Below, in pieces: positions 32,101 to 56,856 of a DNA stretch of 64,000 nt. Origin of the DNA: an uncultured virus (IMG/VR IMGVR_UViG_3300007345_000003) (Duplodnaviria > Heunggongvirae > Uroviricota > Caudoviricetes > Crassvirales); the IMG/VR virus record IMGVR_UViG_3300007345_000003; one strand, given 5' to 3'. The first letter of the stretch is position 1, and each line of letters begins with the position of its first letter. The notes under the pieces were generated by a model that was not told the DNA's origin, ran no database searches, and saw only the letters and a list, made by a program, of their open reading frames with translations. The position numbers were made by a program, and so were the translations under genes.

Positions 32101-33052
32101 AAGTACTAGTACGTCTGTCTATTCTCTGCTGAGATTGAGGATCAACCATGTCCATCCTGTCCCTTGTCAGGTCCAGTTTTCTAAAATCTGGTTTTGAGTT
32201 CCTGCCGTATACGGCGTTTCTAAGAAAGTGTATTTGTCCGGGGGCAGTTATTGCTTCAGGGGGAAGATCAAACGCTGACCGCTGGTGCTTAGGCTGAGCT
32301 GGGGCTAGTCTACTAGCTGAACCGGGAGTACCGTTGAGCCACTTTGTTTTTGTCCTTACCGAGTTCCACTGTATACCATCGTTAGCAGTTCCTAGATCTT
32401 GAACCTTCACTGTTGCCCCTATGTTACTGCTGTCAGCCCCAGTTAAGAATCTGGCTACGTCAACTGTGGGGTTTTGGTGTGCTTTATCGCCAGTTGATGC
32501 TGGCACTCCAGCAAGAACGAATGGTACTTGCCTCTTATTTACAGCTACCCCTAAGTCACTTCTGCCCCCTTGTAGCAGCAAACACCCTTCTAGTATAACT
32601 ATATCACCGGGCTGGACTTGATCAAAAAGCTTTTCAAGCAGATATACTTTTACTGCCAGGTGCCCATCTGTAAGATATCTGAACTCTGTCCGCTCGATGT
32701 ACTCTGCTAGTGTGTTTCCTGTTATAGTAACTAGAGTTAGGTCATCTGACTTTATTTTAATAGACGTGGGCTGCACACCTACCAGCTCTCTTATAGGCTT
32801 ATTAAGCAGACCGTTCTCAAAGTTTCCCTGAAGGCCGTCACCTCCGTTAGCGCCCCCGTACAGCAAAAGATCTGCAGAAGTCCACCCCTCGTAAGCTAAC
32901 TCTTCGCTTGAGAGATACCGTATTTCTGAGGGAGAATGCGCGGAATTGTGTATGAATATATCAAATGCGCTAGCGGCATGAGCCTCTACGAACGTAAATA
33001 CGGGTAGATCTCTGCCCCCCTCTCTTGTAGAAAATCCAAGTACTCTAGCCAT
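26183..33052 (-). CDS. Giant putative virion/tail-associated protein (2289 aa) with GCTD...DDGSC repeats and a Cys-rich C-terminal region
   Basis: Single long ORF in the structural operon; repeats GCTDENAVNFNPNANVDDGSC, GCMDETAVNFNPDANSDDGSC and GCTDPGAENYDPDATIDDGTC. Confidence 0.75.
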   Translation of the reverse strand: MARVLGFSTREGGRDLPVFTFVEAHAASAFDIFIHNSAHSPSEIRYLSSEELAYEGWTSADLLLYGGANGGDGLQGNFENGLLNKPIRELVGVQPTSIKIKSDDLTLVTITGNTLAEYIERTEFRYLTDGHLAVKVYLLEKLFDQVQPGDIVILEGCLLLQGGRSDLGVAVNKRQVPFVLAGVPASTGDKAHQNPTVDVARFLTGADSSNIGATVKVQDLGTANDGIQWNSVRTKTKWLNGTPGSASRLAPAQPKHQRSAFDLPPEAITAPGQIHFLRNAVYGRNSKPDFRKLDLTRDRMDMVDPQSQQRIDRRTSTYRSQRKGDQFSLLEFHGPQLNIGETHGYINYGLYAWKYVVGPSYGDTKYGASSIGGSYLPQTVGGDFLPTGLGIPNQGYELGDTYGYDDSATRSNARCENLRVHPDRGIYRSPYYPHAQSEFMHYVTFYKWENTNFTINSTTNYNITNGVGSAINSNDVNIWAWYASWAFQSSYNEASGNPDASNQTALGGSQYMRLEALNAVLIGNIGWQDFISNAFYMGADPDNTSAHSFQNYISTSENQELVPAYDKLFSGVYHATRIHQTFYNASRTIGANIGGGEAGFTPASTGLTSGWPTVASAAVNSQNLSSSVLFTYTAFVYAESPQAIAISNDDYAPWATSDIPTFTDVYGFSPITEQGAGDTLHRVKYRVNVTSGGGSSTLPPTYAIAANGINGVNSTFCTDKNSEATWAVLGDENETSLVRFRNLSLCNEELDYDRCGCRNVVESLPVGEVGKGTSPDSKRFETVVIYPRNVVTDQYSETGTGGADAFPSLLYVNSYFSVTGNANVDNGYALNYLADGTLAAATSVEYRTTTNSTQTVLLSEFGLGFNGYGDIFQTEFLGLSLPDPTDVLADTNTFTYKYFPGRDPYIDQDLQFFVHDSADEARVFATIGGAGYNSAASSDDEPHRHMLLFSAGSLAIAGTDPKRAHVDLGWTQSWENTEVECSILSLGITTECSDVSKDKPPYRNRKFVVIGDHTIDTGFEDNDGDGDPDNSIKGCTDENAVNFNPNANVDDGSCYFCETALDSDANALHFVQALPLLINTTPGNVDSVSANGLYGTAPATYIGNVGGGLADVPTSSPDIYDWQDGNLFNAVNTSENALTSGSGGGPNTAFTYFAMRHDALLDRLVPASDQGSQQQLGNDSYSGGYQVALNDMITSELASRWVCQIYTYDDWQNRTVPANTFGNGWAVESNGDGSTFAQTNVYYDIFGNFSGVGLESFDEVATLANQYTGDASSFYFRNFDPDDASTVTDIGLEAGREYVAVLRFQPLQTCGQKQFYYMAYHFFVEYCECTDPTSTSAGNYAGADNAPWQGTPWDGVSFYPGVNTPTDQFNTFLADGSGVFTPNFCVTSEDGISTGLLNSRICEFQGEDESVTCGNFYSWCLTEIATDCVGPDENGNVYGEANFSILIDGFFVQSDPGQGGTLGDAYQLIEPQTGFAFYYIVEITVDGILEQTVVSHIVENGLYVPNPEIAITQSVISTFQGANAVINAGPFDFDQDNNGSVGEAVIGVTLQATGLIDNSGQFVSLLDVVDYIVDDDGNPTSVICPAELISYVSTSEDCVDLVEGCMDETAVNFNPDANSDDGSCEYIPCEEIFNDALNSIFITDVESTRASSDCVYVAEPSDGGEPYYYYDPNYDGSMTVTVQDYSVSSPTGALGANEGNFVLFVAYVSGGNINVVGEAMVFYDNNVTAIQGLGEGEFLTMSNTAAAFIGVGDMTTTPITNGDPFGIGESLAGSEYEINVPLGALFGPTNDLTGGQYLLFVVPHIDATAVGENFGGLEDCIAEFGQFADEQTYHVIDMITNTDDCPQPCNQFTNPDDCPDNVAGCTDPGAENYDPDATIDDGTCVYCTTCDFCDLYPTHPECLLCDKRADETLTAGSRGFSASLRDCEGGGKCCADQSATNYDPECRGENADNGQCTYACNGAGCTDCEDDPTGEGCVEDPCPDPNNPDCVNPPIVNCLETGDCPCVGNDCNPECLLNPELCNPGQQPCEQSVANNECEPIETFTTTTIVCNPIFEEAALNEEYDKDWLTQVLMSCASGDALKYMFRLKAGIHLDDVDTTKLALIAYLFIEGSKNNLDCLFDCDNYEAGVKRNGKVRGFSNRMKEIDCKARWAAGRYQRFAASSNYRKGTTVKYTRVVNGVSTSSYYTAKSDWSPGMTLPGVTADKKQRVWEACINVKFQSGGNPENYFQTFVDFIKRYCDNCEIDPLANSGIYESNEGQGIGPNNRTQDFGGNSSIGFQDEDGNEIIF

Positions 33053-33061
33053 GGGTAAGGT

Positions 33062-33520
33062 TTAGCAGCCGCAAGCACAACGCTCTTGGCAAAATTCTTT
33101 TGCTTTGCGATACATGTCGTTAGCGTCGGTTTGTCTACCGTTTGTTGCAGCAAAGACAGCAGCTTGTAGCAGGAGATAAATCTTCTCCGCAAGCTTGAGA
33201 TCTTCCTTGCACTTATCGCACTTACATGTGCAATGTATTGCGTCATGCACCAGCTTAGCGATGCAGCACTGTATGTCGGCTGTACCTACTGAGTACTCAA
33301 CTGTTTTATTACCTCTACCATCGTCTATGGTTGTCTTCAATACCCCGCTTGAGTTCATAGTAAGCGCAGTAACAACCTTACCCTTCTTGGTGCGGGCTCT
33401 CTGAGAGACGGTGTCTCCGGTGAATAGGTTTTCTACAGTTACGGTGTAGTTAGTTCCCCTAGCTGCTCCAGGAGATGCTACCAAAACTCTTTTGCCTGAG
33501 TATACAGATCTTGTTGCCAT
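33062..33520 (-). CDS. Putative tail hub/structural protein with Cys clusters (152 aa)
   Basis: CC.AKL....C.C.C..C and C-terminal C...C.CGC; position after the auxiliary capsid gene. Confidence 0.6.
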   Translation of the reverse strand: MATRSVYSGKRVLVASPGAARGTNYTVTVENLFTGDTVSQRARTKKGKVVTALTMNSSGVLKTTIDDGRGNKTVEYSVGTADIQCCIAKLVHDAIHCTCKCDKCKEDLKLAEKIYLLLQAAVFAATNGRQTDANDMYRKAKEFCQERCACGC

Positions 33521-33530
33521 GATGATAAGT

Positions 33531-33559
33531 AATAAAGGGGGACACCCTATGTGCCCCCC
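33531..33559 (-). terminator. Rho-independent terminator
   Basis: Minus strand GGGGGCAC-ATAGG-GTGTCCCCC-TTTATT directly after the 384-aa gene. Confidence 0.7.
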
Positions 33560-36884: not shown

Positions 36885-38333
36885 TTACGATGCAGTGCAA
36901 GTCAAGTCGAGCGAAGTATCGAATCTGCGGAGCAGGATACCAGCTGTCTTCAACATGTGCACAGAAGCACCGTCTATATCTGAAGCTCGCGTGTCGGTTT
37001 CAGTGAAGCCCTTAGGCACAACTGAACCTGCAACACACCAGCGGAGCATTTCGCGTCCCTTCTTGTTCAACATCTGGAGGTTGTTCTCCCCGTCATAAGA
37101 TGACTGGTCAACAAACACCATTCTGTATGACTCAAGCGGCAATCCAGACTCAGGGTGCTTCTGAGAAGCCTGAGCAACAGGACCGTGATCGAACAATGGG
37201 ACCTTAACCACGTTCACCGTGTGACCATCGACGTGGTCGTACGAGGTGAAGTAACCAGTGATACCCAAGCTACGACCGCTACCAGTGATAAACTTAGACT
37301 CAGTAGTTCTGAGGTAAGAGTTTGTAGTAGTACCGACACCGCTAGAGCTAACACCGTTAGCGTAGTAGCTGCGGAGAGCCTTGTCGAACTCACGTGCACC
37401 ACCAATACCGGTGTACAAAGTCACCTGCTTGTCGGTAGCATCCGTCATGCCGTAGAACAAGTCACCAATCGTGTCCTCCAACTTCTTCTGCGTGAGAGTA
37501 GAGTAGGTGTCCTTATTGATGATCTGCTCGAACAAACCAGGACCAGATATAACTGGTTGGCCATTCTCGTCCAACATTCTGTTAGATCCTTTGTCATCAT
37601 AAGTCTTGTTTCCGTACCAGTAGTACATCTCACACTCTTCCTTAAACTTGAGCATGTGACGGTACTCCTCGTAGTCCATCCACAACTTCGTAGAAGAACC
37701 TTCCTTAGTTGGGAGGTTGAACTCTGCTACGTAGTCTTTAGCGTTACCAGAGAAGTGGTAAGACTTACGCACAGTACCAATCTTAGAACGGACCAACCCG
37801 GGAGCTGTCCAGTTAGAAGCGTTACCGCGTGAGAAGTCAATACCAACGTTAGCAAACAACATGCCCCAAAGAGCACCTGCTGCACGGTCCTCTGAAGGAA
37901 TAGCTGTAACGTCTGGAGAAACGATTTGGAGTTCATACTCGTAACCGTTACCAACCGATCTAGGTTCGCTCATAATCCGAGCCAACACACCAGTCTGTGA
38001 GACCAAAGTGTATGGGAAAATGAACCACTTGTCAGGGAAGGTCAATCTGAAGGGTGCACCTCCAGTTCCGTCTCCTGTGTTAGCGACAACTGGGCGAACG
38101 TTAACTTCATGGGTCTTGACACGATACTCAAATTCAAATCTATTGATTGACTTCGTGTTACCAACCCCTTCAGTCAAGAAGGAAAGAGGAAACTTCTTTT
38201 CTTCACGTCCGGCCAAGTGCGTAATGATGGGAGAGAGCTCTTCGGGCTTCTCCATCAAAGCATTAACCAACGAGTTTGTGTCGGTCATCTGCTGGTCATT
38301 GTAGTACGTTTTAAGTACCTGCATCAAAGCCAT
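36885..38333 (-). CDS. Major capsid protein (crAss-like HK97 fold)
   Basis: 482 aa; FPL..LTEG, TVRKSY..SGN, G.GL.EQI, TG.GG..EF and G.YF..Y....G..V.V...PLFD motifs; position portal-scaffold-MCP. Confidence 0.9.
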   Translation of the reverse strand: MALMQVLKTYYNDQQMTDTNSLVNALMEKPEELSPIITHLAGREEKKFPLSFLTEGVGNTKSINRFEFEYRVKTHEVNVRPVVANTGDGTGGAPFRLTFPDKWFIFPYTLVSQTGVLARIMSEPRSVGNGYEYELQIVSPDVTAIPSEDRAAGALWGMLFANVGIDFSRGNASNWTAPGLVRSKIGTVRKSYHFSGNAKDYVAEFNLPTKEGSSTKLWMDYEEYRHMLKFKEECEMYYWYGNKTYDDKGSNRMLDENGQPVISGPGLFEQIINKDTYSTLTQKKLEDTIGDLFYGMTDATDKQVTLYTGIGGAREFDKALRSYYANGVSSSGVGTTTNSYLRTTESKFITGSGRSLGITGYFTSYDHVDGHTVNVVKVPLFDHGPVAQASQKHPESGLPLESYRMVFVDQSSYDGENNLQMLNKKGREMLRWCVAGSVVPKGFTETDTRASDIDGASVHMLKTAGILLRRFDTSLDLTCTAS

Positions 38334-38358: not shown

Positions 38359-39522
38359 TTAAAAAAGCGCGTTTATGTCCAGTTGATCTGGATCAAATGA
38401 TGGTTGTCTACGCTGAGCTTTACGAGCACTCTTGACTCTCTCTTCGTTAGACTGGATACGTTCCCTGAGATTTCTGACACTCTGCGTGCGTGCTTTTGTG
38501 TCAATGATATCTCCGAGATCAAATCCGCTATACATGAGATAGTCTATTGCGAGCTTGATGTCGATGTTGGCATCAGCATAGTCTAGGTCTCTTTGAGTAT
38601 TGCCTTCCTCGTCTACGGGAGCGGAGATGTAATCGAAGAAGTCTTGCTTATCTGAGTCTGGGATCACTATACCTGCAAACTCATTGTCTTCTGAGATGTA
38701 GTCTGCTACATCGCCCCAGAAGTTTTCTTGCACCTGCTCTTCGTACGCTTGCGCCTCAAGTTGCTCTTGGTACAAAGCTTCTCTCTGCTGCTCTTGCATT
38801 GCAGTAAGTTCTCCTTGTGCTATCAATGCTTTGTTGTACAGCTTACCACCTTCTTCGAAATCGTTGAGCATCTCGAGGATAAACTCATCTTGGTGGCCCA
38901 TTGCTTTGTAGTACTCACCAAGCATAGCGCGTTGGAGAGTCACATCCTGTTCCCTAAGCTCGATACGGCTGTAGTCTGACTGTGGGTTGTTTGCAGCGTA
39001 GAACTCCTGTGGGTCTCCGCCAGCCAACACAAAGTCAAGGTGAGCTTGTATCTCTGGGTACTGGTCAAACAGATCTTGCAGCTGTGCTTCTGCAACTTCT
39101 TCAGACATATCTCTGACAAAGCTGGTGAGCCCCTCTACAGTATCGGCATACTCATTTTCTAATTCAAATCCGAGAATATCAGAGATCTTATCTGCGATGG
39201 GGAGATCGTCGTATTCGTCTTCGGTGAGTTCGTCTTCAAACTCTTCGTCGTCATCTTCCTCATCATCATATTCGTCCTCTTCGTCGTAGTCGTCTTCTAC
39301 GGTGTCTTCATCGTCATCGTCATCGTCGTCTTCATCGACATAGTCTTCGAAGTCTTCGTCTCCATATTCTCTAGGGTCTTCGTCGATGATGTCATCATCG
39401 TCGTAGTATTCCTCAACGTCTTGAGGCTCCTGTTCGACTGTTTCCAGTCCTGGTGCGCCTTCCCCAACGACACTGTCGAAGGTAATGGCGCTAAAGTCTA
39501 GTTTGTTGTTTGGGTCTGACAT
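38359..39522 (-). CDS. Acidic scaffolding-like protein (387 aa)
   Basis: Long D/E tract followed by a helical domain; immediately upstream of the MCP as in Crassvirales. Confidence 0.7.
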   Translation of the reverse strand: MSDPNNKLDFSAITFDSVVGEGAPGLETVEQEPQDVEEYYDDDDIIDEDPREYGDEDFEDYVDEDDDDDDDEDTVEDDYDEEDEYDDEEDDDEEFEDELTEDEYDDLPIADKISDILGFELENEYADTVEGLTSFVRDMSEEVAEAQLQDLFDQYPEIQAHLDFVLAGGDPQEFYAANNPQSDYSRIELREQDVTLQRAMLGEYYKAMGHQDEFILEMLNDFEEGGKLYNKALIAQGELTAMQEQQREALYQEQLEAQAYEEQVQENFWGDVADYISEDNEFAGIVIPDSDKQDFFDYISAPVDEEGNTQRDLDYADANIDIKLAIDYLMYSGFDLGDIIDTKARTQSVRNLRERIQSNEERVKSARKAQRRQPSFDPDQLDINALF

Positions 39523-39526
39523 TACG

Positions 39527-39534
39527 CAAAAATA
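39527..39534 (-). promoter_or_regulatory. Bacteroidota -7 element (TATTTTTG), 4 nt upstream of ATG; probable scaffold/MCP promoter
   Basis: Minus strand TATTTTTG-CGTA-ATG in an AT-rich intergenic region. Confidence 0.7.
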
Positions 39535-39593: not shown

Positions 39594-41594
39594 TCACTTG
39601 CGCTTTCTGCGCTTCTTTCGTCTATCTATCATTCCTCCTCTTCTACGTAGTGACTTGAGCGAGTTAAGTCCAAACTCGTAAGCTTTCATATCTTCAAAAG
39701 ATATGTAGCCTGGAGCGGCTTTATCTAAGTTAATTGGTTGGGGTCCTCGTGATGCTCCTGCTCTAGATATCAAAGGTTCAGAGCTGCCGGGGAGTGAAAT
39801 GTTTAGCCTTCCTTGATCAGCGTGTACATCAAAGCTTTGTCGTATTCTTATAGGTTTCCCGCCCAGCGTTTCAAATACCTCAGTATTGAAGAGTTTATTT
39901 TTTGCCCGTTCTGGGAGTTTGTTTATTGCTTTTTTAGCTCTATTAGGAAGTCTGTCCAAGAGTGGAGAGGTTGTTCCTTGTTGAAACGGTTGGAGATCCC
40001 AGTCATCAACCATATCTACTCTCATACCCTTATTCATTGGGGTTGTCTCTATTCTGTATCCACCCATCACACCATATAGGTCATCAGTGTATCCTACAGA
40101 TACACCTTTATTTCCTTTAAGACTTGCTTTACCAGCTGCCAGGTGTTCCCCGAATGGTATCTTAGGTCCATGTTTCCATTCATCTGAGAGAGGTGCTGTC
40201 CATTTTCCTCGTGCAATCAAATCTTTCTTTACAGCTTTGGGTATCTGAATGTCTCCCACATTGGACGCTGCAAAGTCAAGTTGGTCAGGGTCTCTTAGCT
40301 TAACCTCTCGTCCGCTGACTCCGGAAGGTTTGTATGAACCATACCGTTGTTCTTTTCCAAGACTTAACCGAACTGCATCAATTCTGTTTTCAATTTGATC
40401 TCGTTGATTTTTTGGTATTCTATCATACGGCACAATCGGATTTATGCCCCTGCCCCTGTGTGCCCGGAATACGTTTTCTACTTGTTTCTTCTTGCTGAAT
40501 ACACTTTGCAAAGTTTCTTTTGGGCCCAGAGACTTTTTACCGTACCCAAAAGGAACTTTAGAGTAGGTCAACCCAAATCTAGCGGGGGCTCTAAACAGTC
40601 CTAGGGCACCCTTTCCCGTCATAAATGCACCTGCAGGATCAAATGCTATATCTGCTGCTACTGCTTTAGCCCCAGTTAGGCCTAGTGTTGTAGACGGGGA
40701 GTAGTTTTCTTGTTTTATACCTCTGGCTGCATCTGTGTAGGCAAACGGGTTTGTATTTATTTTCTTTCCTGTAGCAGCATTGAGGAGTGCGCCTGTAGTA
40801 ACTCTACCCGGCCATGACATTGCATCTGTAGCTACGTTTATCATGTTGTTGCCTGCAGTATTGATGTCTTCTCTTACCCCAGACTCAAACTTTTTTCGCT
40901 TAGACTTATCTGTCTTGGCGTAGTCTCCTACAATGCCTGACCCTGTTCTTTTAACAGCGTCTTCTACAGAGTCTAATCCTTTCCTGTCTTTCTTTGCTAC
41001 TACCTCTGCTGTCCCTAACAAGACGGGCATTTGAGTGCCGTCTTCAAACGTCATGATTCTGGTGCCTGGAACTGTATTCTTATCCAGCTTGTGTTTTTCT
41101 GACCACGTCAAGGATACTTTTTGCTTCTCCTCTTTATTATCGTCCTTAGCCCCACCAGTCTGCATCTTTTTTACTTCTCCCCCTTTTTGATACGTAGCTG
41201 GGGTTTCTATCACGGTACCGTGATTTGGTCCCGTAGGCAAGTTGGTTATGCCGGGGGGTACATTCTCGTATGACTGTATCAGATGTCCCTGCTCATCTAC
41301 TTTCTTAATGTTGATAGGTGCTTTCATACCTATCGTATTGAACGGGGTATTAGGAGGGACGTCAGGGAAGACCATAGTTTGATTGAACTCCCCGGCTTTG
41401 TGGTAGGGCCTCAGCCCTTCTTTCTGTTGTTCAGGCGTTTCTGCAACCAGCGGCTTAGCCTGTTCTTGTTGCTGTCTATGTTCAGCCAACAAATCGGTAC
41501 CCTGAGCGTAGGCCTTGTATACGTCAAGTATAGAGCCCTCCATACCGGATGCTCTAAACTCCTCTAGCAATCTCCTACGATCAGCGTTTGTCAT
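39594..41594 (-). CDS. Hypothetical protein (666 aa), probable packaged cargo
   Basis: Between portal and scaffold; YQKGG, MQTGG and RRRGG motifs; Arg/Lys-rich C-terminus. Confidence 0.6.
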   Translation of the reverse strand: MTNADRRRLLEEFRASGMEGSILDVYKAYAQGTDLLAEHRQQQEQAKPLVAETPEQQKEGLRPYHKAGEFNQTMVFPDVPPNTPFNTIGMKAPINIKKVDEQGHLIQSYENVPPGITNLPTGPNHGTVIETPATYQKGGEVKKMQTGGAKDDNKEEKQKVSLTWSEKHKLDKNTVPGTRIMTFEDGTQMPVLLGTAEVVAKKDRKGLDSVEDAVKRTGSGIVGDYAKTDKSKRKKFESGVREDINTAGNNMINVATDAMSWPGRVTTGALLNAATGKKINTNPFAYTDAARGIKQENYSPSTTLGLTGAKAVAADIAFDPAGAFMTGKGALGLFRAPARFGLTYSKVPFGYGKKSLGPKETLQSVFSKKKQVENVFRAHRGRGINPIVPYDRIPKNQRDQIENRIDAVRLSLGKEQRYGSYKPSGVSGREVKLRDPDQLDFAASNVGDIQIPKAVKKDLIARGKWTAPLSDEWKHGPKIPFGEHLAAGKASLKGNKGVSVGYTDDLYGVMGGYRIETTPMNKGMRVDMVDDWDLQPFQQGTTSPLLDRLPNRAKKAINKLPERAKNKLFNTEVFETLGGKPIRIRQSFDVHADQGRLNISLPGSSEPLISRAGASRGPQPINLDKAAPGYISFEDMKAYEFGLNSLKSLRRRGGMIDRRKKRRKRK

Positions 41595-43804
41595 TCTCCG
41601 TCAGGTCTTAGGTCACCCTCTTTGTTAAGGGCTTGCTGCTTAAGATCTAGCTCTCTCTGCTTTATCTCAAAGTTCTGCTGCATCTTGGCCATGTCAATGT
41701 TCAGCCTATCCTGATTGTCTGAAGCTTCAGCTTTGATAAGCGCCAACTCGATCTGCAACTGTCTGTCCTTCTCTTTGTCGACAGCCTGCTGCTGTATCTG
41801 CATCTGCTGAGTCTTCTGCTGTTCAACTTGAGCTTGCTGTTGAGCTTGCTGTTGTTGTTGCTCCAACTCTTTCTGTGCTTTCTCAGCTTTCTTGATCTTA
41901 TCCTTGATGCCTGCGTAGTTCTCAGTATCGAACAGGTCAAGTACTGCAGAAGCTGGTACCCCGTTCTGAATCATAGATTGAGACAACATCTTAGCTTGTT
42001 CAAGCTTGTCTTGGTCTCTACCTGCATCAGACACGAAGATGCCGTACTCTGTCTCCATGTGTTGCATAGAGTCGATGTCGATCATTTCAGTAGTCATGTC
42101 AGGCATAACGTACATGGCCTTCTTACCTGAGAGCCAGGCTTCTTTCGAGTAATCGATCAAGCCTTGCAACTCACGTTGTTCAAAGCGTGCATACTTACGG
42201 AAGATGTCTTCGGTGATATGCGATGACTGTACGATTGCCTGCTGTGATGTAGCCTTGCCTTCGTACGGCCCGATACCACCTTGTCTTTGTCTGTTGACTC
42301 CTGATATCTTCTCCCACTCCTGCATGATGGACTCGAGAAGATTGAGATACTGGTCGATTGTCTTGATAGACATGTCAAGTACAGACTGGTGCTGCGGTGA
42401 CAGCTGTATCCCTTCTTTGTTGTAATCTACCCACGCGATACCTGTACCTTCTACGAAGTACATGAACTTATCCATGTCCCACTTCTTGGGTATCATGTTG
42501 ATGTCAAACTGGGCTATGATGTCTTTTGATCTTGCGATCGCCAACTCCATTCTATACTTAAAGATGTTGTAGTTGAGCTGGAATGGGACACCCAGTGATA
42601 CAATTGATATGTTGTCAGCGTTGATGTCTGAGTACTTTCGTCCATTGACTGGTAGTTTGCAGAGTGATGGGTTGTCAAGTGATGTACGTTGGTTGGAGAT
42701 GGGGTTCATCTTGATGTAGAAGTCCCCGTCTATACGCGTGCCTTCCCACACCTCATTGACCCACTCGTATTTAATCTTAGCTCCTTGTTCTTTTAGTTCT
42801 TGCGGGATACGGAATCCGTCCTCAACCTGCATCTCTTCGATGACTCCTGTGACTTTGTCTTTGTAAGACAAGAACCCAATGCGCTTGCGTGACTTCCAGT
42901 ATACAGTAACTACTTCGATAAGTCTGTTTCTATAGATGTTGTCATCTGACCCTGTAGCCTCTGATCTGTACAACAAGTAAGACTCAGTAGACTGCTGCTT
43001 TGGGTTCTCCAACTGCAACACCTGTTCAGGCGTGAGATACGGGCTGAACATGTCCACTGCGCTTGATGCGTGCACAAACTTTCTGATGATGGCCCAGTCC
43101 CCGTCCTCCACGAACTCAATGTCTGGGTCTTTATCGAAGTCTATATCAAGAGGGTTAAGTATCTCGTAGAATGGTTCTGCATTACGCACGCCTTTGTGCG
43201 AGTACACCTCACCCGTCACCAGGTAGTGGAAGAACCCTTTCTGGAACTTGTCGTATATCTCCTGATGCTGCATGATGTAGTTCAACGCAGCCTGTCCTTT
43301 GATGGCTCTGTTGTCTACGTATGTACGCTCGAACTGCTCCAGTACTTCTTCTGGGAGTGGGATCTCTTCGGGGTTGCCTACAAGGTCTGAGTTTCTAGCC
43401 AGTTCATTCAAGAACATCTTCTGAACCTGAGTAAACAATGCTTGCTTCTTAGCCTCTTCTTTGCGAGTGACTGCATCTGCATTGGCTATGATAACGCTGT
43501 AGTTCAGAGGTCTCTTGGACTTCTCCCCCAGCAGCAGGTCAATGATGGGCTTGATGATTGGGTAGTTGCGCAGCTTTGATGGGAAGTTGCTTCTCGTTTT
43601 CCCGTACGGCTTAAGCACATACTTGTAGTCATCGTCATCGATGTTACCGTTGTAGTATTCATACAAGGCTTTCAGTCTGGAGCGGCGCTCTGACAGACCA
43701 AACTTAGACATATCTATGTAGGCTTCAACGCATTCCTCTGCCCACTTCTTCGTCTTCTTTGACCTCGGGATACGCTGTTGCGGTATTTTATGGGTACCGT
43801 ACAT
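41591..43804 (-). CDS. Portal protein
   Basis: 737 aa directly after TerL; YY.G......Y.Y...PY, NYPII.P.I..L.GE..R, W.NEVWEG.RI and G...QR.G motifs; Gln-rich coiled-coil barrel. Confidence 0.9.
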   Translation of the reverse strand: MYGTHKIPQQRIPRSKKTKKWAEECVEAYIDMSKFGLSERRSRLKALYEYYNGNIDDDDYKYVLKPYGKTRSNFPSKLRNYPIIKPIIDLLLGEKSKRPLNYSVIIANADAVTRKEEAKKQALFTQVQKMFLNELARNSDLVGNPEEIPLPEEVLEQFERTYVDNRAIKGQAALNYIMQHQEIYDKFQKGFFHYLVTGEVYSHKGVRNAEPFYEILNPLDIDFDKDPDIEFVEDGDWAIIRKFVHASSAVDMFSPYLTPEQVLQLENPKQQSTESYLLYRSEATGSDDNIYRNRLIEVVTVYWKSRKRIGFLSYKDKVTGVIEEMQVEDGFRIPQELKEQGAKIKYEWVNEVWEGTRIDGDFYIKMNPISNQRTSLDNPSLCKLPVNGRKYSDINADNISIVSLGVPFQLNYNIFKYRMELAIARSKDIIAQFDINMIPKKWDMDKFMYFVEGTGIAWVDYNKEGIQLSPQHQSVLDMSIKTIDQYLNLLESIMQEWEKISGVNRQRQGGIGPYEGKATSQQAIVQSSHITEDIFRKYARFEQRELQGLIDYSKEAWLSGKKAMYVMPDMTTEMIDIDSMQHMETEYGIFVSDAGRDQDKLEQAKMLSQSMIQNGVPASAVLDLFDTENYAGIKDKIKKAEKAQKELEQQQQQAQQQAQVEQQKTQQMQIQQQAVDKEKDRQLQIELALIKAEASDNQDRLNIDMAKMQQNFEIKQRELDLKQQALNKEGDLRPDGE

Positions 43805-43814
43805 CTGGCTAAAA

Positions 43815-45767
43815 TTACTTATAAATACGGTCGAACCAGTCGTCCGTAGATCTATCGGATAGAATTTCGGTTACCTCTCTATTATATAACTCTCGCGTGT
43901 GGTACATACCCACCATGAAAGCCATTACCCTATCGAAGTTTCCTCTGTGGTTAAATTTAATCAATTCTTGGAGAAGTCCGGGATCGTATATCTTATGCAA
44001 GTTAAGTGTTACGTTACCGTCTTCATCTGTGTGTCTTGGTGTCACCAACCAGTCTCTGATGTACAACTCTCCCTGCCGCTTCCGCTGCTCGGTCATGTGC
44101 ATCCCGTACTGGCGTCTTACATTTCTGGATCGCAGTTCTCGCTTGTCCAGCATTTCAAATTCTTCTTGTAGCTTATGTAGTTTGCGATATCTCTTCGCGT
44201 AAGCAATGAGCTCTCCACGGTCGTTCTCGAACCCGATTTTTGCGTTGTAGTACTCCGCCAACATAAATAGATTGCGGTTGTACTCATCCTGTGTTTGTGG
44301 TCTCCCGACATAGCTTGCTACTATTATATCATCCGGCTTGGATAGATTGTTTGGTCTCTTGATGACGTATGCAGCCCCAAGCGATTCATTGCTCGTAGAC
44401 TTTGACTGAGCATAAGGGTCATGGCAGATAAGATACAAATTGTGAGGCACTTCTTTTTCGTTCGTTAGGTAGGGTGCTTCGTATACCACTACCGCCCCCT
44501 CTGTCTTATCCCCTTTTCTGTGTGGGAACTTGTAGACTGGTTGGACATCTCCAGATGGTCGGAACGATGCCTTCCCGTCTTTGTCGTAGTACATTACTCC
44601 TGCTGTCCCCTCAGTCTGTAGGCCATGAGCTTTAACCTTGTTATACTGCTCTTTAAGACTGTTGACATCAAAAAGATTTGCTGTGACTTGTAGCGTCGCT
44701 TCTTGAGGGGTGAATGGGTGCTCCGCGACGTACTGGTCAAGCGCCTTTGGGTCATTAGCTCCCTTCTTCTTCTCCCTTTGTATCTCTTCATGTTTCTTGG
44801 CTTCTTCTATCATAGAGTTACCGTTCTCATCTATGAACCCGTCTAGGTTTTGGTAGATTGGGACAAAGTATCCGCAGACAGTTCCCATAGCTCCTGCATC
44901 CCACTCGTTGTCAAATGCCATGCAATCATACGACTCAGGGTGGTAGAACAATTCCTCCATACCCTCGAACCCAGAGCCCTCTTCACCACCCGTACCGAAT
45001 GCTATCATGGTACCCAGTGTCTTTGAGCCCTGACGCATTGTAGGCATAGCCACTTCCCAAGCTTTCAGCAGTCCTCCGAATGAACCTGCCTCCTCAAAGA
45101 AAATCAGATCACCTGCTTTACCACGGACTTTGTCTGGGTTATCCTTCAACGATACCCCTATGATTTGGGACTTCATCCCAAGTTCAACATCTGCCCCGTT
45201 TACGTTCTTCTTGTACCCGGATTGTTTGTGCATCTCACGGTCACGCAGGCGAGGTTGCGTCCATGCCGTGTTGTCGTCTATGAATGACAGGAAGTCCCAA
45301 GCTTTGCTGAGCAGTCCATCCCCGATCAGGTACTCTTTCTGCGAGGCGAACACATAGTTCTTGGAGTTACGCATCAGGAAGTAGTTCCTGGCTAGCATAG
45401 CCCCAGCTTTGTACGAGAAACCTTTACGTCTTGCTTTCAAGACGACCATATGCCTGTTTGTTTTTCTGCACTCGTCTACCGCAGTGAAGTACTGGTGGTC
45501 TCCGTCGTAGAAGGCAGGAAATGTTCTGTCTCTTCGGGCGATCTTGGTACCATCTGCCAGGAACTCGTCTACGACTCGGTCTATAGGGCAGAAGTTTAGG
45601 TAGAAATAGTGATACCCCGTTATGTCTAAATATCCCTGCGTGCATCTCTCTTTCTGTTCGTCCCAGTAGTCGTAGTACTCTCGCGTGCCCGGCAACGCAT
45701 CGGTGTAGAACCCGAAGTCTAGGTAGTGCTGAGCAGCAGGTGAGTATTTACTGGAGTTTTTGAACAT
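43815..45767 (-). CDS. terL: Terminase large subunit
   Basis: ITGYHYFYLNF, Walker A KARRKGFSY, Walker B IFFEEAG, GTGG coupling motif; nuclease DPY...ENDR...NFDRV; no intron or intein apparent. Confidence 0.92.
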   Translation of the reverse strand: MFKNSSKYSPAAQHYLDFGFYTDALPGTREYYDYWDEQKERCTQGYLDITGYHYFYLNFCPIDRVVDEFLADGTKIARRDRTFPAFYDGDHQYFTAVDECRKTNRHMVVLKARRKGFSYKAGAMLARNYFLMRNSKNYVFASQKEYLIGDGLLSKAWDFLSFIDDNTAWTQPRLRDREMHKQSGYKKNVNGADVELGMKSQIIGVSLKDNPDKVRGKAGDLIFFEEAGSFGGLLKAWEVAMPTMRQGSKTLGTMIAFGTGGEEGSGFEGMEELFYHPESYDCMAFDNEWDAGAMGTVCGYFVPIYQNLDGFIDENGNSMIEEAKKHEEIQREKKKGANDPKALDQYVAEHPFTPQEATLQVTANLFDVNSLKEQYNKVKAHGLQTEGTAGVMYYDKDGKASFRPSGDVQPVYKFPHRKGDKTEGAVVVYEAPYLTNEKEVPHNLYLICHDPYAQSKSTSNESLGAAYVIKRPNNLSKPDDIIVASYVGRPQTQDEYNRNLFMLAEYYNAKIGFENDRGELIAYAKRYRKLHKLQEEFEMLDKRELRSRNVRRQYGMHMTEQRKRQGELYIRDWLVTPRHTDEDGNVTLNLHKIYDPGLLQELIKFNHRGNFDRVMAFMVGMYHTRELYNREVTEILSDRSTDDWFDRIYK

Positions 45768-48098: not shown

Positions 48099-48330
48099 CT
48101 CTGAAAACTATTTTGGCTCTCCCCTCATCTAGGTTTATTCTACACGTGGAGGATTGCCTGTTAAACTCATCTAGGTATTCTTGTATGTTCTCTCTTGTCA
48201 CCAAGAATGATAAGAATACCTCTAACTCTCTTGCCGCTCTTTGCAGCATTTGGTCTTTCTGGTCTGTGGCTTCTTTAGCGCTCCTCAGCTCATCGAAAGA
48301 CTTTAACGACACTGTGACGCTTCCCTCCAT
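48082..48330 (-). CDS. Hypothetical protein (82 aa)
   Basis: Coupled to groES; VT.SL..FDEL start. Confidence 0.55.
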   Translation of the reverse strand: MEGSVTVSLKSFDELRSAKEATDQKDQMLQRAARELEVFLSFLVTRENIQEYLDEFNRQSSTCRINLDEGRAKIVFRDGQEY

Positions 48331-48608
48331 TAGTTAGGGATAATACCGCAGATCATAAATTCGTTCACCATTACGTACTCCTTACCCTTTAGGTCTATAA
48401 TTAGACCTTCAGATGTAGGATGTACCATGACAGTGTCGCCCTCTTTGACCATCTCACACTTAGGTCCTGCGGCAACTACTTCAAGTATGTTCGTACGTAG
48501 TGAGTTTTCTGCACCCCCGTGCAGTGTAATACCGGATGCGGTCTTATTCTTACGTTGAACTGGGAGAACTACCCAGTCACGTGTGGGTTGGAAGTTGATC
48601 TTTGCCAT
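48330..48608 (-). CDS. groES: Co-chaperonin GroES (Cpn10)
   Basis: P..D.V.V....KTASGI.L......VVA.G.....VK.GD.V.........Y....E..I pattern. Confidence 0.88.
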   Translation of the reverse strand: MAKINFQPTRDWVVLPVQRKNKTASGITLHGGAENSLRTNILEVVAAGPKCEMVKEGDTVMVHPTSEGLIIDLKGKEYVMVNEFMICGIIPN

Positions 48609-48624: not shown

Positions 48625-48632
48625 CAAAGATA
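48625..48632 (-). promoter_or_regulatory. Bacteroidota -7 element (TATCTTTG)
   Basis: Exact TAnnTTTG match 16 nt upstream of the groES ATG. Confidence 0.65.
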
Positions 48633-48644
48633 TAAAAACTTGTC

Positions 48645-49043
48645 TTATATAAACAAGAGTAGTACAGTTCTTTTTCCCTCATGTGGGGTTACCATGTGCT
48701 CTACGTCAGAACTGTGGATGTAGGCTGAACGGTAAATCTTATCTTCTTTCCTGTCTCTGTAGGTAAGTGTGCCCCCAGTAAACTGATCTGGTTTGGATAG
48801 CAGTACACTTGCCCCATATCTGCACCAAAGCATGTGCTTTTTGCTGCCTGTGTCTATATGCCACCCGTGTCCTTGAGGCTTAGACTCTACTCTCCAATAA
48901 GAGTTTTCTGTAGGGGTAGCATCTATGTGAGCTAGCACTTTTTTGAGCGGTGCAGAATCCCAGGTACGATGCTTACCTGTAGGTTGTGCTTTTAACCAGT
49001 TTACGTCATCTTCGTCTATGACGTTGTCAACTCGTTTTCTCAT
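48645..49043 (-). CDS. 2OG-Fe(II) oxygenase superfamily protein (about 132 aa, probable start MRKRV)
   Basis: WHID, FTGG.L and H.VTP..G.R..L motifs (HxD...H...R). Confidence 0.8.
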   Translation of the reverse strand: MRKRVDNVIDEDDVNWLKAQPTGKHRTWDSAPLKKVLAHIDATPTENSYWRVESKPQGHGWHIDTGSKKHMLWCRYGASVLLSKPDQFTGGTLTYRDRKEDKIYRSAYIHSSDVEHMVTPHEGKRTVLLLFI

Positions 49044-49456
49044 AGTATATCTGCAAACTTCTCGCTGACTTTGAAGCTGGGGCATGTTTTGTCTGAGAAC
49101 TCATTGTGCCCGTGCAGCGTCAACTCTCTATCCCATACCATGCGTAGTGAGAACACCAGTTCCCTGAATGCTTCTTCTTGGCATTCGAACATTGTGTCCT
49201 TGGGGTTCATCTCAGCATCCATCCCACCGATGTAGCAGATCCCTATGGAGTCGTCATTGTGGCCTTTGGTGTGTGCACCTTTTGTATCTAGAGGTCTCCC
49301 ACTTTCTATCTCCCCGTTTAGCTTGATGACGTAGTGGTACCCGATATCCGCCCAGCCGTTTCCGTTTACGTGCCAGTCTCTTATTGTTGCTGCGTCTATG
49401 TCTCTCCCTTCTGGAGTGGCGGAGCAGTGCAGTATAATTCGGTTAATCTCTCTCAT
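49040..49456 (-). CDS. Endolysin, N-acetylmuramoyl-L-alanine amidase (T7 lysozyme-like)
   Basis: IILHCSAT, W.DIGYH.VI..GR....GAH..G.N..SIGICYIGG, GH.E...K.CPSF; probable start MREIN at 49456. Confidence 0.92.
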   Translation of the reverse strand: MREINRIILHCSATPEGRDIDAATIRDWHVNGNGWADIGYHYVIKLNGEIESGRPLDTKGAHTKGHNDDSIGICYIGGMDAEMNPKDTMFECQEEAFRELVFSLRMVWDRELTLHGHNEFSDKTCPSFKVSEKFADIL

Positions 49457-49693
49457 GACTAGATACAATTTACCCCCTTGGGTTTTCGTGTTTAGCAGTT
49501 GGACTTCCACTCGCCGTCTTTAGCCTACGTGGGGGCATTTCTGTCAGCCTATAGCCTTGTTCCCACCCGAGTTTTATACCAACGCACTTTTTGAAACTAC
49601 CGGGGACAACGTTCACTGCCTATGGTGACAGCTAATGTAACCCGATGTCTAGGCCCCTTTTTGGTTACCGAGGGCCGGTCGCAAAGCGGTTTC
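49457..49693 (-). ncRNA. Unidentified structured RNA (about 240 nt) or structured 5' leader of the endolysin
   Basis: No credible ORF; own TACCTTTG promoter; many complementary segments (see findings). Confidence 0.55.
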
Positions 49694-49697
49694 GTTA

Positions 49698-49705
49698 CAA
49701 AGGTA
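49698..49705 (-). promoter_or_regulatory. Bacteroidota -7 element (TACCTTTG) in front of the structured element
   Basis: Exact TAnnTTTG match directly after the stop of the 102-aa gene. Confidence 0.65.
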
Positions 49706-49706
49706 A

Positions 49707-50015
49707 TTAATTGCAGTCTTTCTGCCGCAACTCATCCACAAGTATTTGCAGTTGTTCTACATCACGCTCTAAGTGATTGAGTCTGAGGTTCTGCTCAGCA
49801 TCATCAGGTAAGCTGCCCATCTCCCCTCTTGGCCACTTGATTCTGAACTCTGAGTTGAGTTCGATCTCTTGATTGTGACGCATAGTTTCTATCTCAAGCT
49901 GAGACAGTGCAGACATGATGGTGAAGTAAATCCATACAGCCCCACCAACACCTACAACGATTTGGATCAACCACTTAATGTTAATCCCGAAGTTTGTGGT
50001 GTCGTCAAGTTTCAC
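49707..50015 (-). CDS. Single-TM membrane protein with coiled coil (lysis-cassette candidate)
   Basis: TM segment WLIQIVVGVGGAVWIYF, then WPRGEMGSLPDDAEQ and a heptad region. Confidence 0.65.
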   Translation of the reverse strand: MKLDDTTNFGINIKWLIQIVVGVGGAVWIYFTIMSALSQLEIETMRHNQEIELNSEFRIKWPRGEMGSLPDDAEQNLRLNHLERDVEQLQILVDELRQKDCN

Positions 50016-50221
50016 TCCATCTTGTTTTTAGCGAGGAGTATCTTGATCTCTTGGATGTCTTTAAGGAGCTGCTTAACGTCGTCCTTAAACTCTTTGTTGT
50101 CTGCCTCCAGGGCGTAGACCCGAGATGATAGTTTGTTGTAGTCAGCTTGGAACTTTATCCAACCCCCGATTAACGATCCTGCTACAACTAAAAACTCAAA
50201 GTGAGATAGGTATTCTTCCAT
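50012..50221 (-). CDS. Small single-TM coiled-coil protein, holin-like (69 aa, probable start MEEYL)
   Basis: FLVVAGSLIGGWI TM followed by RV.ALE...IQEIKILL; the longer track ORF overlaps a better upstream ORF. Confidence 0.6.
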   Translation of the reverse strand: MEEYLSHFEFLVVAGSLIGGWIKFQADYNKLSSRVYALEADNKEFKDDVKQLLKDIQEIKILLAKNKME

Positions 50222-50234
50222 AGTGATAGGTGTG

Positions 50235-50369
50235 TCACCTACCCTGGCCGCGATATGCTTTCTTATAGTTCTTAGACTTCTTATGGACTGAAGTCTTGGT
50301 CTTAGCATGTACCCCAGGACGGGAGACAGTTTTACGAATGTAAATGTCGAATGCTGTTTGTTTTGCCAT
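50235..50369 (-). CDS. Small basic protein (44 aa), below the ORF-track cutoff
   Basis: MAKQTAFDIYIRKTVSRPGVHAKTKTSVHKKSKNYKKAYRGQGR; ATG lies 4 nt after a TAACTTTG promoter; first gene of the late arm. Confidence 0.75.
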   Translation of the reverse strand: MAKQTAFDIYIRKTVSRPGVHAKTKTSVHKKSKNYKKAYRGQGR

Positions 50370-55864: not shown

Positions 55865-56625
55865 TAGTAACGCTCACGTCGATACCCTCTCGTATGGAGT
55901 ATCTACACGTTGCGTTGCATACTTTGTTGACTCAGACAGTGAAAGCGGATAGGGTGGTTCTATCACTTCCACATGAGTCAATACGTGAGAAGACAGGGTA
56001 TGTACTAAGCGAAGCAGTGCAGAAACTTGTCGACTCCGGATACGTGGAGCTGTTGCGTTGCAAGGACTACGGTCCTGCAACCAAGCTCCTCGGTGTCTTA
56101 GAACAAGAGATGGGGAAGAAGGAAAGCATTGAGCCTTTCATCTTCTTCTTTGATGATGATAGAGCTTACCACAGCAATGCTGTAGAGATCCTGTTACGTA
56201 GTGGATTGCTAGACAGGGGACATGCAGCATGCAGAATGGGGAGTATAGTCTACCAAAACCCTTGGGGTGAGGAGAGAGTATGCTCTGCAAATATTCGTCA
56301 GCCAGAAGAGGTAAATGTTCTTCTTGGTTACAGCGGTGTGGCTGTACGACCATCTTACTTTGATGAACGTGTATTCACCCATGAAGTAAAGGACTCTTTC
56401 TTCGTGGATGATGTGCATCTGAGTGGTAACTTGCGTCGAAATGGGGTGAAGATATTTGTCCCACCAGCACCACCAACACAATGGCAAATCGAAGCAGGGG
56501 AAGCAGGTTTCTTGGAGACTGATCCAGGTCTGAAAAGCACCAACATTAACCCTTTGCATGCGATAAACCACACCAAACTAGATCATACCTTTAATACTTT
56601 GAAACACTTCAAACTGCCTCGGTAG
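55843..56625 (+). CDS. GT-A fold glycosyltransferase-like protein
   Basis: IVTLTSIPSR......L..LL.QT...D, D.GP.TKL, DDD..Y (DxD), G..GV...P and DD..LS motifs. Confidence 0.75.
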   Translation: MYDGRKLIVTLTSIPSRMEYLHVALHTLLTQTVKADRVVLSLPHESIREKTGYVLSEAVQKLVDSGYVELLRCKDYGPATKLLGVLEQEMGKKESIEPFIFFFDDDRAYHSNAVEILLRSGLLDRGHAACRMGSIVYQNPWGEERVCSANIRQPEEVNVLLGYSGVAVRPSYFDERVFTHEVKDSFFVDDVHLSGNLRRNGVKIFVPPAPPTQWQIEAGEAGFLETDPGLKSTNINPLHAINHTKLDHTFNTLKHFKLPR

Positions 56626-56689
56626 CACAACTGGATAGTGCAACAGCCTTCTAAGCTGTAGGTTGTGGGTTCGAGTCCCGCCCGGGGTA
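56616..56689 (+). tRNA. tRNA-Arg (anticodon TCT, reads AGA)
   Basis: Cloverleaf: GCCTCGG/CCGGGGT acceptor, ACAGC-CT-TCT-AA-GCTGT anticodon arm, GTGGG-TTCGAGT-CCCGC T-arm; CCA not encoded. Confidence 0.9.
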
Positions 56690-56737
56690 CGCGTGTGAGG
56701 CGATAACAGCTCAGACGTGTTTCATTCAATTACAGGT

Positions 56738-56767
56738 AGGGCCGGTGAAACGTCACTGGCCCTTTTT
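56738..56767 (+). terminator. Terminator-like hairpin between the two tRNAs
   Basis: AGGGCCGGTGA-AACG-TCACTGGCCCT-TTTT. Confidence 0.6.
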
Positions 56768-56768
56768 C

Positions 56769-56841
56769 GCGCTCTTAGCTCAGTGGTTAGAGCAGATGAC
56801 TCATAATCATCCGGTCGCAGGTTCAAGTCCTGCAGGGCGCA
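56769..56841 (+). tRNA. tRNA with CAT anticodon, most likely tRNA-Ile2 (lysidine-modified, reads ATA); Met not excluded
   Basis: GCGCTCT/AGGGCGC acceptor, GATGA-CT-CAT-AA-TCATC anticodon arm, GCAGG-TTCAAGT-CCTGC T-arm; body resembles bacterial ileX-type tRNAs; no initiator C1:A72 mismatch. Confidence 0.85.
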
Positions 56842-56856
56842 CAAAACGATTCCAAC

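Follow-up and report, generated by a model that had tools for sequence, protein, structure and literature searches.

A structured RNA behind a promoter box

The DNA analysed here, a stretch of 64,000 nucleotides (nt) from the uncultured-virus record IMGVR_UViG_3300007345_000003 and referred to below as the window, is that of a Crassvirales phage by its gene content (Crass_capsid protein, terminase, portal, GroES-like protein, Amidase_2 endolysin). On its minus strand, a 250-nt gap (49457-49706) separates the TAA of the open reading frame (ORF) at 49707-50015 from the amidase ATG at 49456. A first-pass annotation, made from the letters alone, had drawn attention to this gap and to a perfect promoter box, TACCTTTG, at 49698-49705 (-); the ORF coordinates agree with the first and the sequence with the second. 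We find that the gap holds a new family of structured phage RNA, about 235 nt long and outside Rfam, with two domains, nine helices and one long-range pseudoknot that are supported by compensatory base changes. Positions in the fold are numbered from window base 49706, which is position 1, so that position p falls on base 49707 - p; the features, read from the minus strand, are given below with window coordinates first.

49698-49705 (-): Bacteroidota-type -7 promoter box TACCTTTG; helix P1 begins 5 nt downstream
49460-49694 (-): structured RNA, about 235 nt, as matched by the covariance model R1
49593-49693 (-): domain 1, in which P1 closes a junction of P2, P3 and P4, and P4 encloses the variable hairpin P5
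49689-49693/49593-49597 (fold 14-18/110-114): P1, compensatory changes in 5 of 5 pairs
49680-49688 (19-21/25-27): P2, compensatory changes in 3 of 3 pairs
49652-49676 (31-36/50-55): P3, compensatory changes in 5 of 6 pairs; 99.3% of cells pair
49641-49646/49599-49604 (61-66/103-108): P4, 1 of 6 pairs compensatory, 2 changed on one side, 3 invariant
49616-49631 (76-80/87-91): P5, compensatory changes in 5 of 5 pairs
49495-49585 (-): domain 2, a long arm of P6, P7, P8 and P8b
49579-49585/49495-49502 (122-128/205-212): P6, compensatory changes in 7 of 7 pairs
49568-49572/49509-49513 (135-139/194-198): P7, compensatory changes in 5 of 5 pairs
49562-49566/49529-49533 (141-145/174-178): P8, 2 of 5 pairs compensatory, 3 invariant
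49554-49556/49534-49536 (151-153/171-173): P8b, compensatory changes in 2 of 3 pairs
49537-49553 (-): loop L8, 17 nt, near-invariant and unpaired in the model
49514-49528 (-): internal loop J8/7, 15 nt, near-invariant and unpaired in the model
49608-49610/49490-49492 (97-99/215-217) (-): pseudoknot PKa, GUU with AAC
49574-49578/49464-49468 (129-133/239-243): probable pseudoknot PKb, UAUAA of J6/7 with the tail UUGUA
49473-49477 (230-234) (-): G run of the tail (AAGGGGG), GGG(G) invariant in 67 of 67 sequences

Relatives of the element were gathered in two ways. Searching viral contigs for relatives of the amidase yielded 222 confirmed places, 80 of which were kept, and in 41 of these the gap sequence lies directly upstream of the amidase at 82-100% identity. 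The RNA is 81-93% identical in nucleotides, against 68-79% for the adjoining amidase gene (69-84% in amino acids), and it is the more conserved of the two in all 17 loci compared. Exact-pattern scans of viral contigs with the invariant blocks returned 54, 101 and 65 stretches, and nhmmer on these yielded 88 distinct versions scoring 50 to 289 bits; eight loci from a gapped pattern had no match to R1 and were discarded as chance. R1 itself matches 49460-49694 (-) end to end with 243.6 bits, and this is the sole copy in the window.

Base pairing was assessed in two alignments. The first, A1, is a plain MAFFT alignment of 67 distinct sequences whose 5' ends were set by a loose regular expression for the -7 box; 77 unique sequences passed this expression, two of them unusable and none discarded for want of the box, and those left out include six cut by a contig end and three lost to other misses of the expression, two of which later matched R1 end to end. 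In A1, 93.9% of cells pair, compared with 36-44% when the 3' partners are slid by 1-3 columns; double changes are found in 36 of 53 pairs (12-19 when slid), the covariation score is 0.469 (at most 0.087 when slid), and none of 500 shuffles reaches the observed value on four of five measures. The second, A3, comprises 70 distinct rows aligned to R1, which biases it toward the nested helices to which the model was fitted, though not toward the pseudoknots; here 96.9% of cells pair, double changes occur in 38 of 53 pairs (13-19 when slid) and the covariation score is 0.529 (at most 0.084 when slid). Given the trimmed MAFFT alignment only, RNAalifold finds P1 (3 of 5 pairs), P2, P3, P4, P6, P8 and P8b unaided, in a prediction of 36 pairs of which 21 carry compensatory changes. 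Covariation among homologous intergenic regions, which the first-pass annotation had suggested looking for, is therefore present.

The two pseudoknots differ in how well they are supported. All cells (100%) pair in PKa, through three pair sets (GUU/AAC, GUC/GAC and GAU/AUC), and two of its three pairs show compensatory changes. PKb is less securely supported and is best described as probable: 91.9-97.1% of cells pair and one or two pairs are compensatory. Its tail strand (U-R-U-R) pairs equally well with the UAUA of L8 (49550-49553); both partners are near-invariant, and one flanking pair varies. The G run of the tail could likewise pair alternatively with the pyrimidine strand of P3 or of P4, and because these candidate partners are invariant too, covariation is uninformative about them.

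Several helices that the first-pass annotation had drawn are not supported as parts of this fold. Its hairpin GGCCCU/AGGGGCC is P3, and holds up well. The remainder were a pseudoknot from the loop of that hairpin, a long interrupted rod, a helix UGCCCCC/GGGGGUA and a closing helix CUAGA/UCUAG. When these were tested jointly across the 67 sequences of A1, with three of the four rod segments counted (the fourth, CCG..AGUUU/AAACUCGG, was mapped but lay outside the joint count), 74.5% of cells paired, double changes were found in 4 of 37 pairs against 3-7 when slid, and the covariation score was 0.104 against 0.035-0.071. The strands of these rejected helices pair elsewhere, CUGUC locally with GGCAG, ACUCG with CGAGU, and CCCAC with GUGGG.

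Covariation also bears on whether the element acts as RNA at all. The fold contains frequent G-U pairs, such as 37 U-G in P4 and 51 G-U in P6, which on the opposite strand would be A-C mismatches; thus, the RNA is that of the minus strand, on which the promoter and the downstream genes also lie. The rival view is that the gap works as DNA, in packaging or replication, that it encodes a small protein by recoding or frameshifting, or that it is an intron; the folding energy described below, no better than that of shuffles, and the richness in TAG speak for this. Compensatory changes that pass through G-U pairs act on RNA, though, rather than on DNA or protein, and contradict this explanation. 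Moreover, stops occur in all three frames (7 TAG, 6 TAA and 2 TGA, spread over the frames), and since every frame is stopped and the TAGs are scattered, the gap is non-coding under any single recoding, which rules out a coding gap under a changed code. Relatives that lack the element keep the amidase start and have no fused ORF, and Rfam intron models find no match. We therefore regard an element that is not an RNA gene as very improbable.

Single-sequence folding energy, which the first-pass annotation had put forward as a result able to refute the RNA, gives a misleading answer here. Folding of the gap yields -62.9 kcal/mol, whereas shuffles average -70.5 (z = +1.51) and 190 of 200 match or exceed its stability, so that the measure is no better than shuffles and would wrongly reject a real RNA. 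The supported nested fold has an energy of -48.9 kcal/mol on the window sequence, and the test is blind to it because the minimum-energy fold contains just 11 of the 45 supported pairs. The general lesson is that a folding-energy z-score, +1.51 in this case, can wrongly dismiss a real RNA.

Diverged members from the distant clades (L190, L137, L155 and others) have a run of purines as the pairing partner of P3's 5' strand and its flank (GAUCACCUCU or GAUCACCCCU). We take this strand to resemble the 3' end of 16S ribosomal RNA, and the duplex to resemble an anti-Shine-Dalgarno/Shine-Dalgarno pairing; the feature is not shared by the clade of the window and may be chance.

Searches among known RNAs and genomes

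The first-pass annotation recognised no known family in the gap and proposed a new class of phage RNA, a proposal that covariance-model scans of Rfam bear out. At the gathering score, Rfam 15 finds only two tRNAs in the whole window, and with the gap alone at E values up to 10 it returns just two chance-level matches, both on the opposite strand. Fourteen diverse members of the RNA family gave no match at E up to 1. ARAGORN and Rfam find no tRNA or tmRNA in the gap, the only two tRNAs of the window lying at 56616-56842; these are phage genes on the plus strand, in the other arm, for tRNA-Arg (TCT) and tRNA-Met (CAT).

Particular candidates were considered and set aside. A group I intron is at odds with complete flanking ORFs, with an amidase start that is the same in relatives without the element, and with the lack of any Rfam intron match. 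In three of these relatives (loci L024-L026), a similar amidase is present, the element is absent, and another ORF abuts the same amidase start with no ORF fused; an intron is thereby excluded. A likeness of two loops to group I intron core elements, and a likeness to conserved regions of RNase P, were noticed by eye and dropped, as the order of the elements is wrong and no model matches. RNase P RNA, tmRNA and tRNA-like structures have no Rfam or ARAGORN match, and a phi29-type packaging RNA has no Rfam match; the present RNA, besides, lacks a terminator of its own.

Sequence searches of GenBank phages were equally empty. Blastn with the window gap, the surrounding 3-kb stretch and two diverged members gave no match; the closest GenBank terminases are about 43% identical. 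In Cellulophaga phage phi14:2, a filter-free R1 search of the region where the leftward arm begins reached at best 8.9 bits, inside groEL, and did not find the RNA. A full-text search of the literature on crAss-like phages and Crassvirales, with supplementary files outside its scope, turned up no paper on this RNA; one Crassvirales paper that mentions 'structured RNA' deals with reverse transcriptases and not with the present RNA.

Cellular genomes hold few copies. When prokaryotes were scanned for the exact pattern, with one genome taken per species, 22 matches came up, only one of them with the whole element; the other 21 are the number that chance predicts for 17 fixed bases in that much DNA. 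The whole-element match lies on an 81.6-kb contig (L395) binned in a metagenome-assembled genome (MAG) of the Bacteroidia, and its phage context is the same. This contig is probably a crAss-size phage genome binned with its host, and would then offer a weak pointer to that host. Among 151 sampled genomes of Bacteroidia, R1 matches in two, the MAG and a second genome, G106 (43.7 bits), and within the family of G106 it matches in 5 of 58 genomes, with 54.7, 43.7, 29, 21.1 and 19.9 bits.

L406:9821-10062 (+), identical with G106:C3:37320-37561: diverged island variant, also at L407, L408, L409 and L410, R1 scores of 20-55 bits

In G106 the copy lies in a chromosome, on a contig of 647 kb, with a superoxide-dismutase gene on one side and a glmS-like gene on the other. 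The same-strand operon that it heads encodes an 83-amino-acid (aa) protein, then an excisionase-like protein with an HTH_17 domain, then a protein of 166 aa. Genes for a resolvase and for a large serine recombinase come a few kb further on and end what, judged by these genes, is an integrative island. Domain 1, the J6/7 block and the tail are retained in the variant, in which the inside of domain 2 has been replaced and two more hairpins are present past the tail. Rfam scans of four island variants gave three chance-level matches only, all outside the element. The diverged island copy shows that the module moves between kinds of mobile element.

A promoter-proximal leader of the late block

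The -7 motif TAnnTTTG is uninformative by itself, as its 36 matches in the window stand at chance level (38.3 expected); the weight of the box comes from its conservation ahead of the RNA in relatives. In 67 of 67 aligned relatives, rows that had been preselected by the loose box expression, the T, A, T and G of the box are invariant, and across the alignment P1 begins 5-14 nt after the box. At the other end of the RNA, a terminator-like site falls within -20 to +150 nt of the tail in only 4 of 70 distinct contexts, and all four of these sites are within ORFs. In 33 of the 70 contexts, the next ORF (45 codons or more) begins 0-9 nt past the tail; the distance is 10-39 nt in 19 more and up to about 146 nt in the rest. 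The lack of a terminator and the closeness of a downstream ORF together indicate that the RNA is a leader and not a terminated stand-alone gene.

Which genes this leader precedes can be read from the window and from its relatives. In the window, the neighbouring genes and those of the late block are as follows.

49707-50015 (-): upstream protein, 102 aa, phrog_20984, one membrane helix and a coiled coil; its stop codon is 1 nt ahead of the promoter box
49040-49456 (-): amidase, Amidase_2 endolysin (PF01510, 5.8e-13; phrog_822, 9.4e-51), the first gene past the RNA in the window phage
48330-48608: GroES-like gene, late block
43815-45767: terminase, late block
41591-43804: portal, late block
36885-38333: Crass_capsid major capsid protein, late block

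In all 80 viral loci with 5-kb flanks, the element is present once and a same-strand ORF comes next. Eighteen sampled loci share the late block of the window (GroES-like phrog_3188, DUF6171/phrog_13558 and phrog_16390), after which the window has terminase, portal and capsid. What stands first past the RNA varies: amidase phrog_822, a 76-aa protein, a protein of 500-870 aa, the operon of another endolysin-like protein, phrog_1501, or the GroES-like gene itself, and in some clades the 76-aa protein is followed by a protein of 500-870 aa and then by a phrog_3000 endolysin-like protein. The 76-aa protein, which has no PHROG or Pfam match, comes first in 24 loci (for example L362:5127-5351) and was considered as a constant partner of the RNA; it is absent from the window, and no constant adjoining gene was seen. 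In more distant clades, the nearest upstream gene is on the opposite strand, so that the RNA stands at a strand switch. Since the first gene varies while the late block stays, the tie to the endolysin is local to the clade of the window. Thus, as a leader the RNA is promoter-proximal and belongs to the late block rather than to the endolysin in particular. The promoter-driven structured leader of the first-pass annotation is upheld by the covariation, the lack of a terminator and the same-strand ORF that always follows; its further suggestion of a device that times endolysin translation fits the window clade, where the amidase is the first gene, and fails among relatives in which another gene takes that place.

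Other features of the locus deserve mention in their own right. Directly upstream of the RNA, at 49707-50308 (-), lie genes for two small proteins (102 aa and 98 aa), each with one membrane helix and then a coiled coil; these may be lysis partners of the amidase, holin- or spanin-like, although the RNA and its promoter stand between. At 33537-33559 (-), within the leftward arm, a hairpin of 9 pairs (7 G-C) with a run of T behind it resembles a strong intrinsic terminator; it stands just ahead of the ORF 33062-33520 and of a 2289-aa ORF at 26183-33052, and no perfect -7 box follows it on the minus strand. Further perfect -7 boxes on that strand occupy short gaps at 48625-48632, before the GroES-like gene, and at 39527-39534, before the ORF 38359-39522, and the late arm may have several internal promoters.

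RNA sequencing libraries contribute little. Sampled words of a 2-kb stretch are present at 5-9% in six RNA runs (seven runs are listed, six of them on record as RNA). Four RNA runs gave eight short contig pieces, most at depth 2-3 and none over the RNA core, which says nothing on expression, abundance or habitat. One RNA-library contig (246 nt, depth 2.2) covers 49303-49548, the final 92 nt of the RNA together with the opening 154 nt of the amidase gene; it is weakly compatible with co-transcription, DNA carry-over being possible.

Possible functions and comparison with known systems

What might such a leader do? We favour the reading that it is a cis-acting control leader of the late operon, to which we would give a probability of roughly 0.45. 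Transcription would start a few bases past the host-type -7 box, and the RNA would form the 5' leader of the late-block transcript (lysis genes, GroES-like gene, terminase, portal, capsid). As the likeliest single mechanism, though less probable than not, the folded nascent RNA might engage the transcribing host RNA polymerase, in an anti-pausing or antitermination role like that of the put RNAs of phage HK022 described below, and such engagement would set whether and when the long late block is completed. The near-invariance of the unpaired loops suggests either a small ligand or a host partner that is itself conserved; unpaired nucleotides stay conserved across phages whose proteins are about 50-70% identical. 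A host partner is plausible because these nucleotides stay while proteins drift, because put RNAs sit behind promoters, because a terminator-like hairpin (33537-33559) stands inside the arm, and because the island variant heads the operon of another mobile element.

Several points weigh against the cis-control reading. RNA libraries hold scattered low-depth contigs only, and any function is read from sequence comparison. Against antitermination in particular, strong intrinsic terminators are not enriched within about 4.8 kb behind the RNA, where 2 are found in sense against 3 in antisense (65 regions, 291,683 nt), nor in the window, with 17 against 16.2 expected. The RNA (235 nt, two domains) has three times the length of put and nothing in common with it, and the island variant heads a short operon only. 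The closeness of the tail to a start codon (33 of 70 contexts) fits translational as well as transcriptional control, and a leader can also be cut off and then act in trans.

Control of the operon could also take the form of a riboswitch-like sensor, which we consider nearly as likely as action on the polymerase, if itself improbable. A metabolite, an ion or an alarmone bound by the two-domain fold, or some other sensed state, would fix or free the 3' tail with its G run and pseudoknot, switching translation of the first gene and, by polarity, of the operon. The junctions and loops are near-invariant and unpaired, as ligand pockets are; PKb pairs the tail back into the core, the start codon lies 0-9 nt past the tail in 33 of 70 contexts, and the invariant AAGGGG could pair alternatively with the pyrimidine strand of P3 or P4. 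The island variant, too, precedes an excisionase-like gene and hence another 'exit' decision. Yet an expression platform of the terminator type is absent (a terminator-like site in 4 of 70 contexts), the distance to the next ORF reaches about 146 nt and the first gene varies, just 27 of 70 contexts have a start-like codon in the tail that opens an ORF of 45 codons or more, and no ligand is known. Related to this is whether AAGGGGG serves as the Shine-Dalgarno sequence of a conserved ORF. We rejected this candidate: the ATG of the amidase clade comes 13-16 nt later, and the same 27 of 70 contexts are the only ones in which a tail codon opens such an ORF. A phage ribosomal protein S21, which might use such a sequence, was not found in the nearest record (G001, 78% complete).

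Rather than controlling its own transcript, the RNA could be released, or used, from the 5' end of the late transcript as a trans-acting molecule (a ribozyme, a protein or virion scaffold, or a decoy), its position merely setting the timing. Its size, pseudoknots and near-invariant loops do resemble those of ribozymes and of the RNAs of ribonucleoproteins, L8 holds a self-complementary CUAUAG that could let two copies kiss, and conservation is far above that of the neighbouring genes. Against this, the RNA is without a terminator of its own, Rfam scans find no ribozyme family, and in 80 of 80 viral loci examined the RNA strictly keeps its orientation and its place ahead of a same-strand block. 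We judge a trans-acting role unlikely, though no more so than the sensor. More unlikely still is a passive stabiliser, in which a compact fold at the 5' end shields the long late mRNA from 5'-end-dependent decay. P1 does lie within a few bases of the expected start site, and the RNA, with no terminator behind it, is co-transcribed with the operon; a simple hairpin would suffice for such shielding, however, and near-invariant loops, two pseudoknots and conservation across phages with proteins about 50-70% identical would be unneeded.

Extending the cis-control leader beyond the window, we consider it possible, though somewhat doubtful, that it belongs to a large leader class common to environmental crAss-like phages and Bacteroidia islands, one that reprograms host machinery once folded on the nascent transcript, as a polymerase-bound, processive anti-pausing or antitermination RNA or as a sensor of a host metabolite or alarmone that decides when the element exits. 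If true, for the phage this exit would be lysis and the expression of late genes, for the island its excision, and the class would supply the missing middle-to-late transcription switch of crAss-like phages that use the same host polymerase for both.

Comparison with known systems helps to place the RNA. The late leader of phage lambda, with its PR' promoter, short 6S RNA and a terminator, tR', that is read through with Q, is not known to be a conserved tertiary fold. Like it, the crAss-like RNA is the first thing transcribed ahead of lysis and virion genes; unlike it, this RNA has no terminator and has a strongly covarying fold. GOLLD (RF01998) and ROOL (RF03087) are phage-carried structured RNAs whose function is unknown, several hundred nt long and encoded as stand-alone genes. 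They share with the present RNA a conserved, intricate, phage-borne fold, whereas the latter is about 235 nt long and a leader without a terminator, and neither model matches it. In some translational riboswitches, among them the SAM-II and preQ1 classes, a 3' strand or pseudoknot reaches the ribosome-binding region. The crAss-like RNA resembles these in having a conserved folded core in a 5' leader and a tail that pairs back into the core, beside the start codon in many members, but it is much larger, its spacing to the start codon is variable, and it is in no Rfam riboswitch family.

Two further systems act on transcription itself. Passages on the conAn system of pLS20 and other conjugative elements describe conAn2 RNA as a leader that acts in cis only and lets polymerase finish a long operon; it is 260-600 bp long, 30-40% identical between elements, and works with a protein, ConAn1, encoded just upstream (PMC8191782). 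Both are leader RNAs of mobile elements in a comparable size range, yet the crAss-like RNA is extremely conserved, and no constant partner gene was seen adjoining it. For phage HK022, the relevant parts of the source portray the putL and putR RNAs as nascent phage transcripts of about 70 nt with two stem-loops, lying just downstream of a promoter and acting in cis on host RNA polymerase with no phage protein needed (PMC9378689). The crAss-like RNA is likewise promoter-proximal (its box is 5 nt before P1), heads a long operon and has no terminator behind it. It differs in being about 235 nt long with nine helices, a covarying PKa and a probable PKb, in having a Bacteroidota host, and in showing no sequence or model similarity to put. 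Put binds the beta-prime zinc-binding domain and suppresses pausing and termination; any such action on the polymerase would here be by analogy.

The crAss-like phages are among the most abundant viruses of Bacteroidota, and only phi14:2 has been studied as a model in depth. Its middle and its late transcripts are both products of the host polymerase, and the passages on these transcripts give no explanation of what sets one class apart from the other (bioRxiv 10.1101/2020.03.07.982082). As a conserved, complex and promoter-proximal element that heads the late block, the RNA described here is a concrete candidate for this middle/late control, and its length of about 235 nt and strong covariation make it tractable for structure determination and for screens of ligand or polymerase binding.

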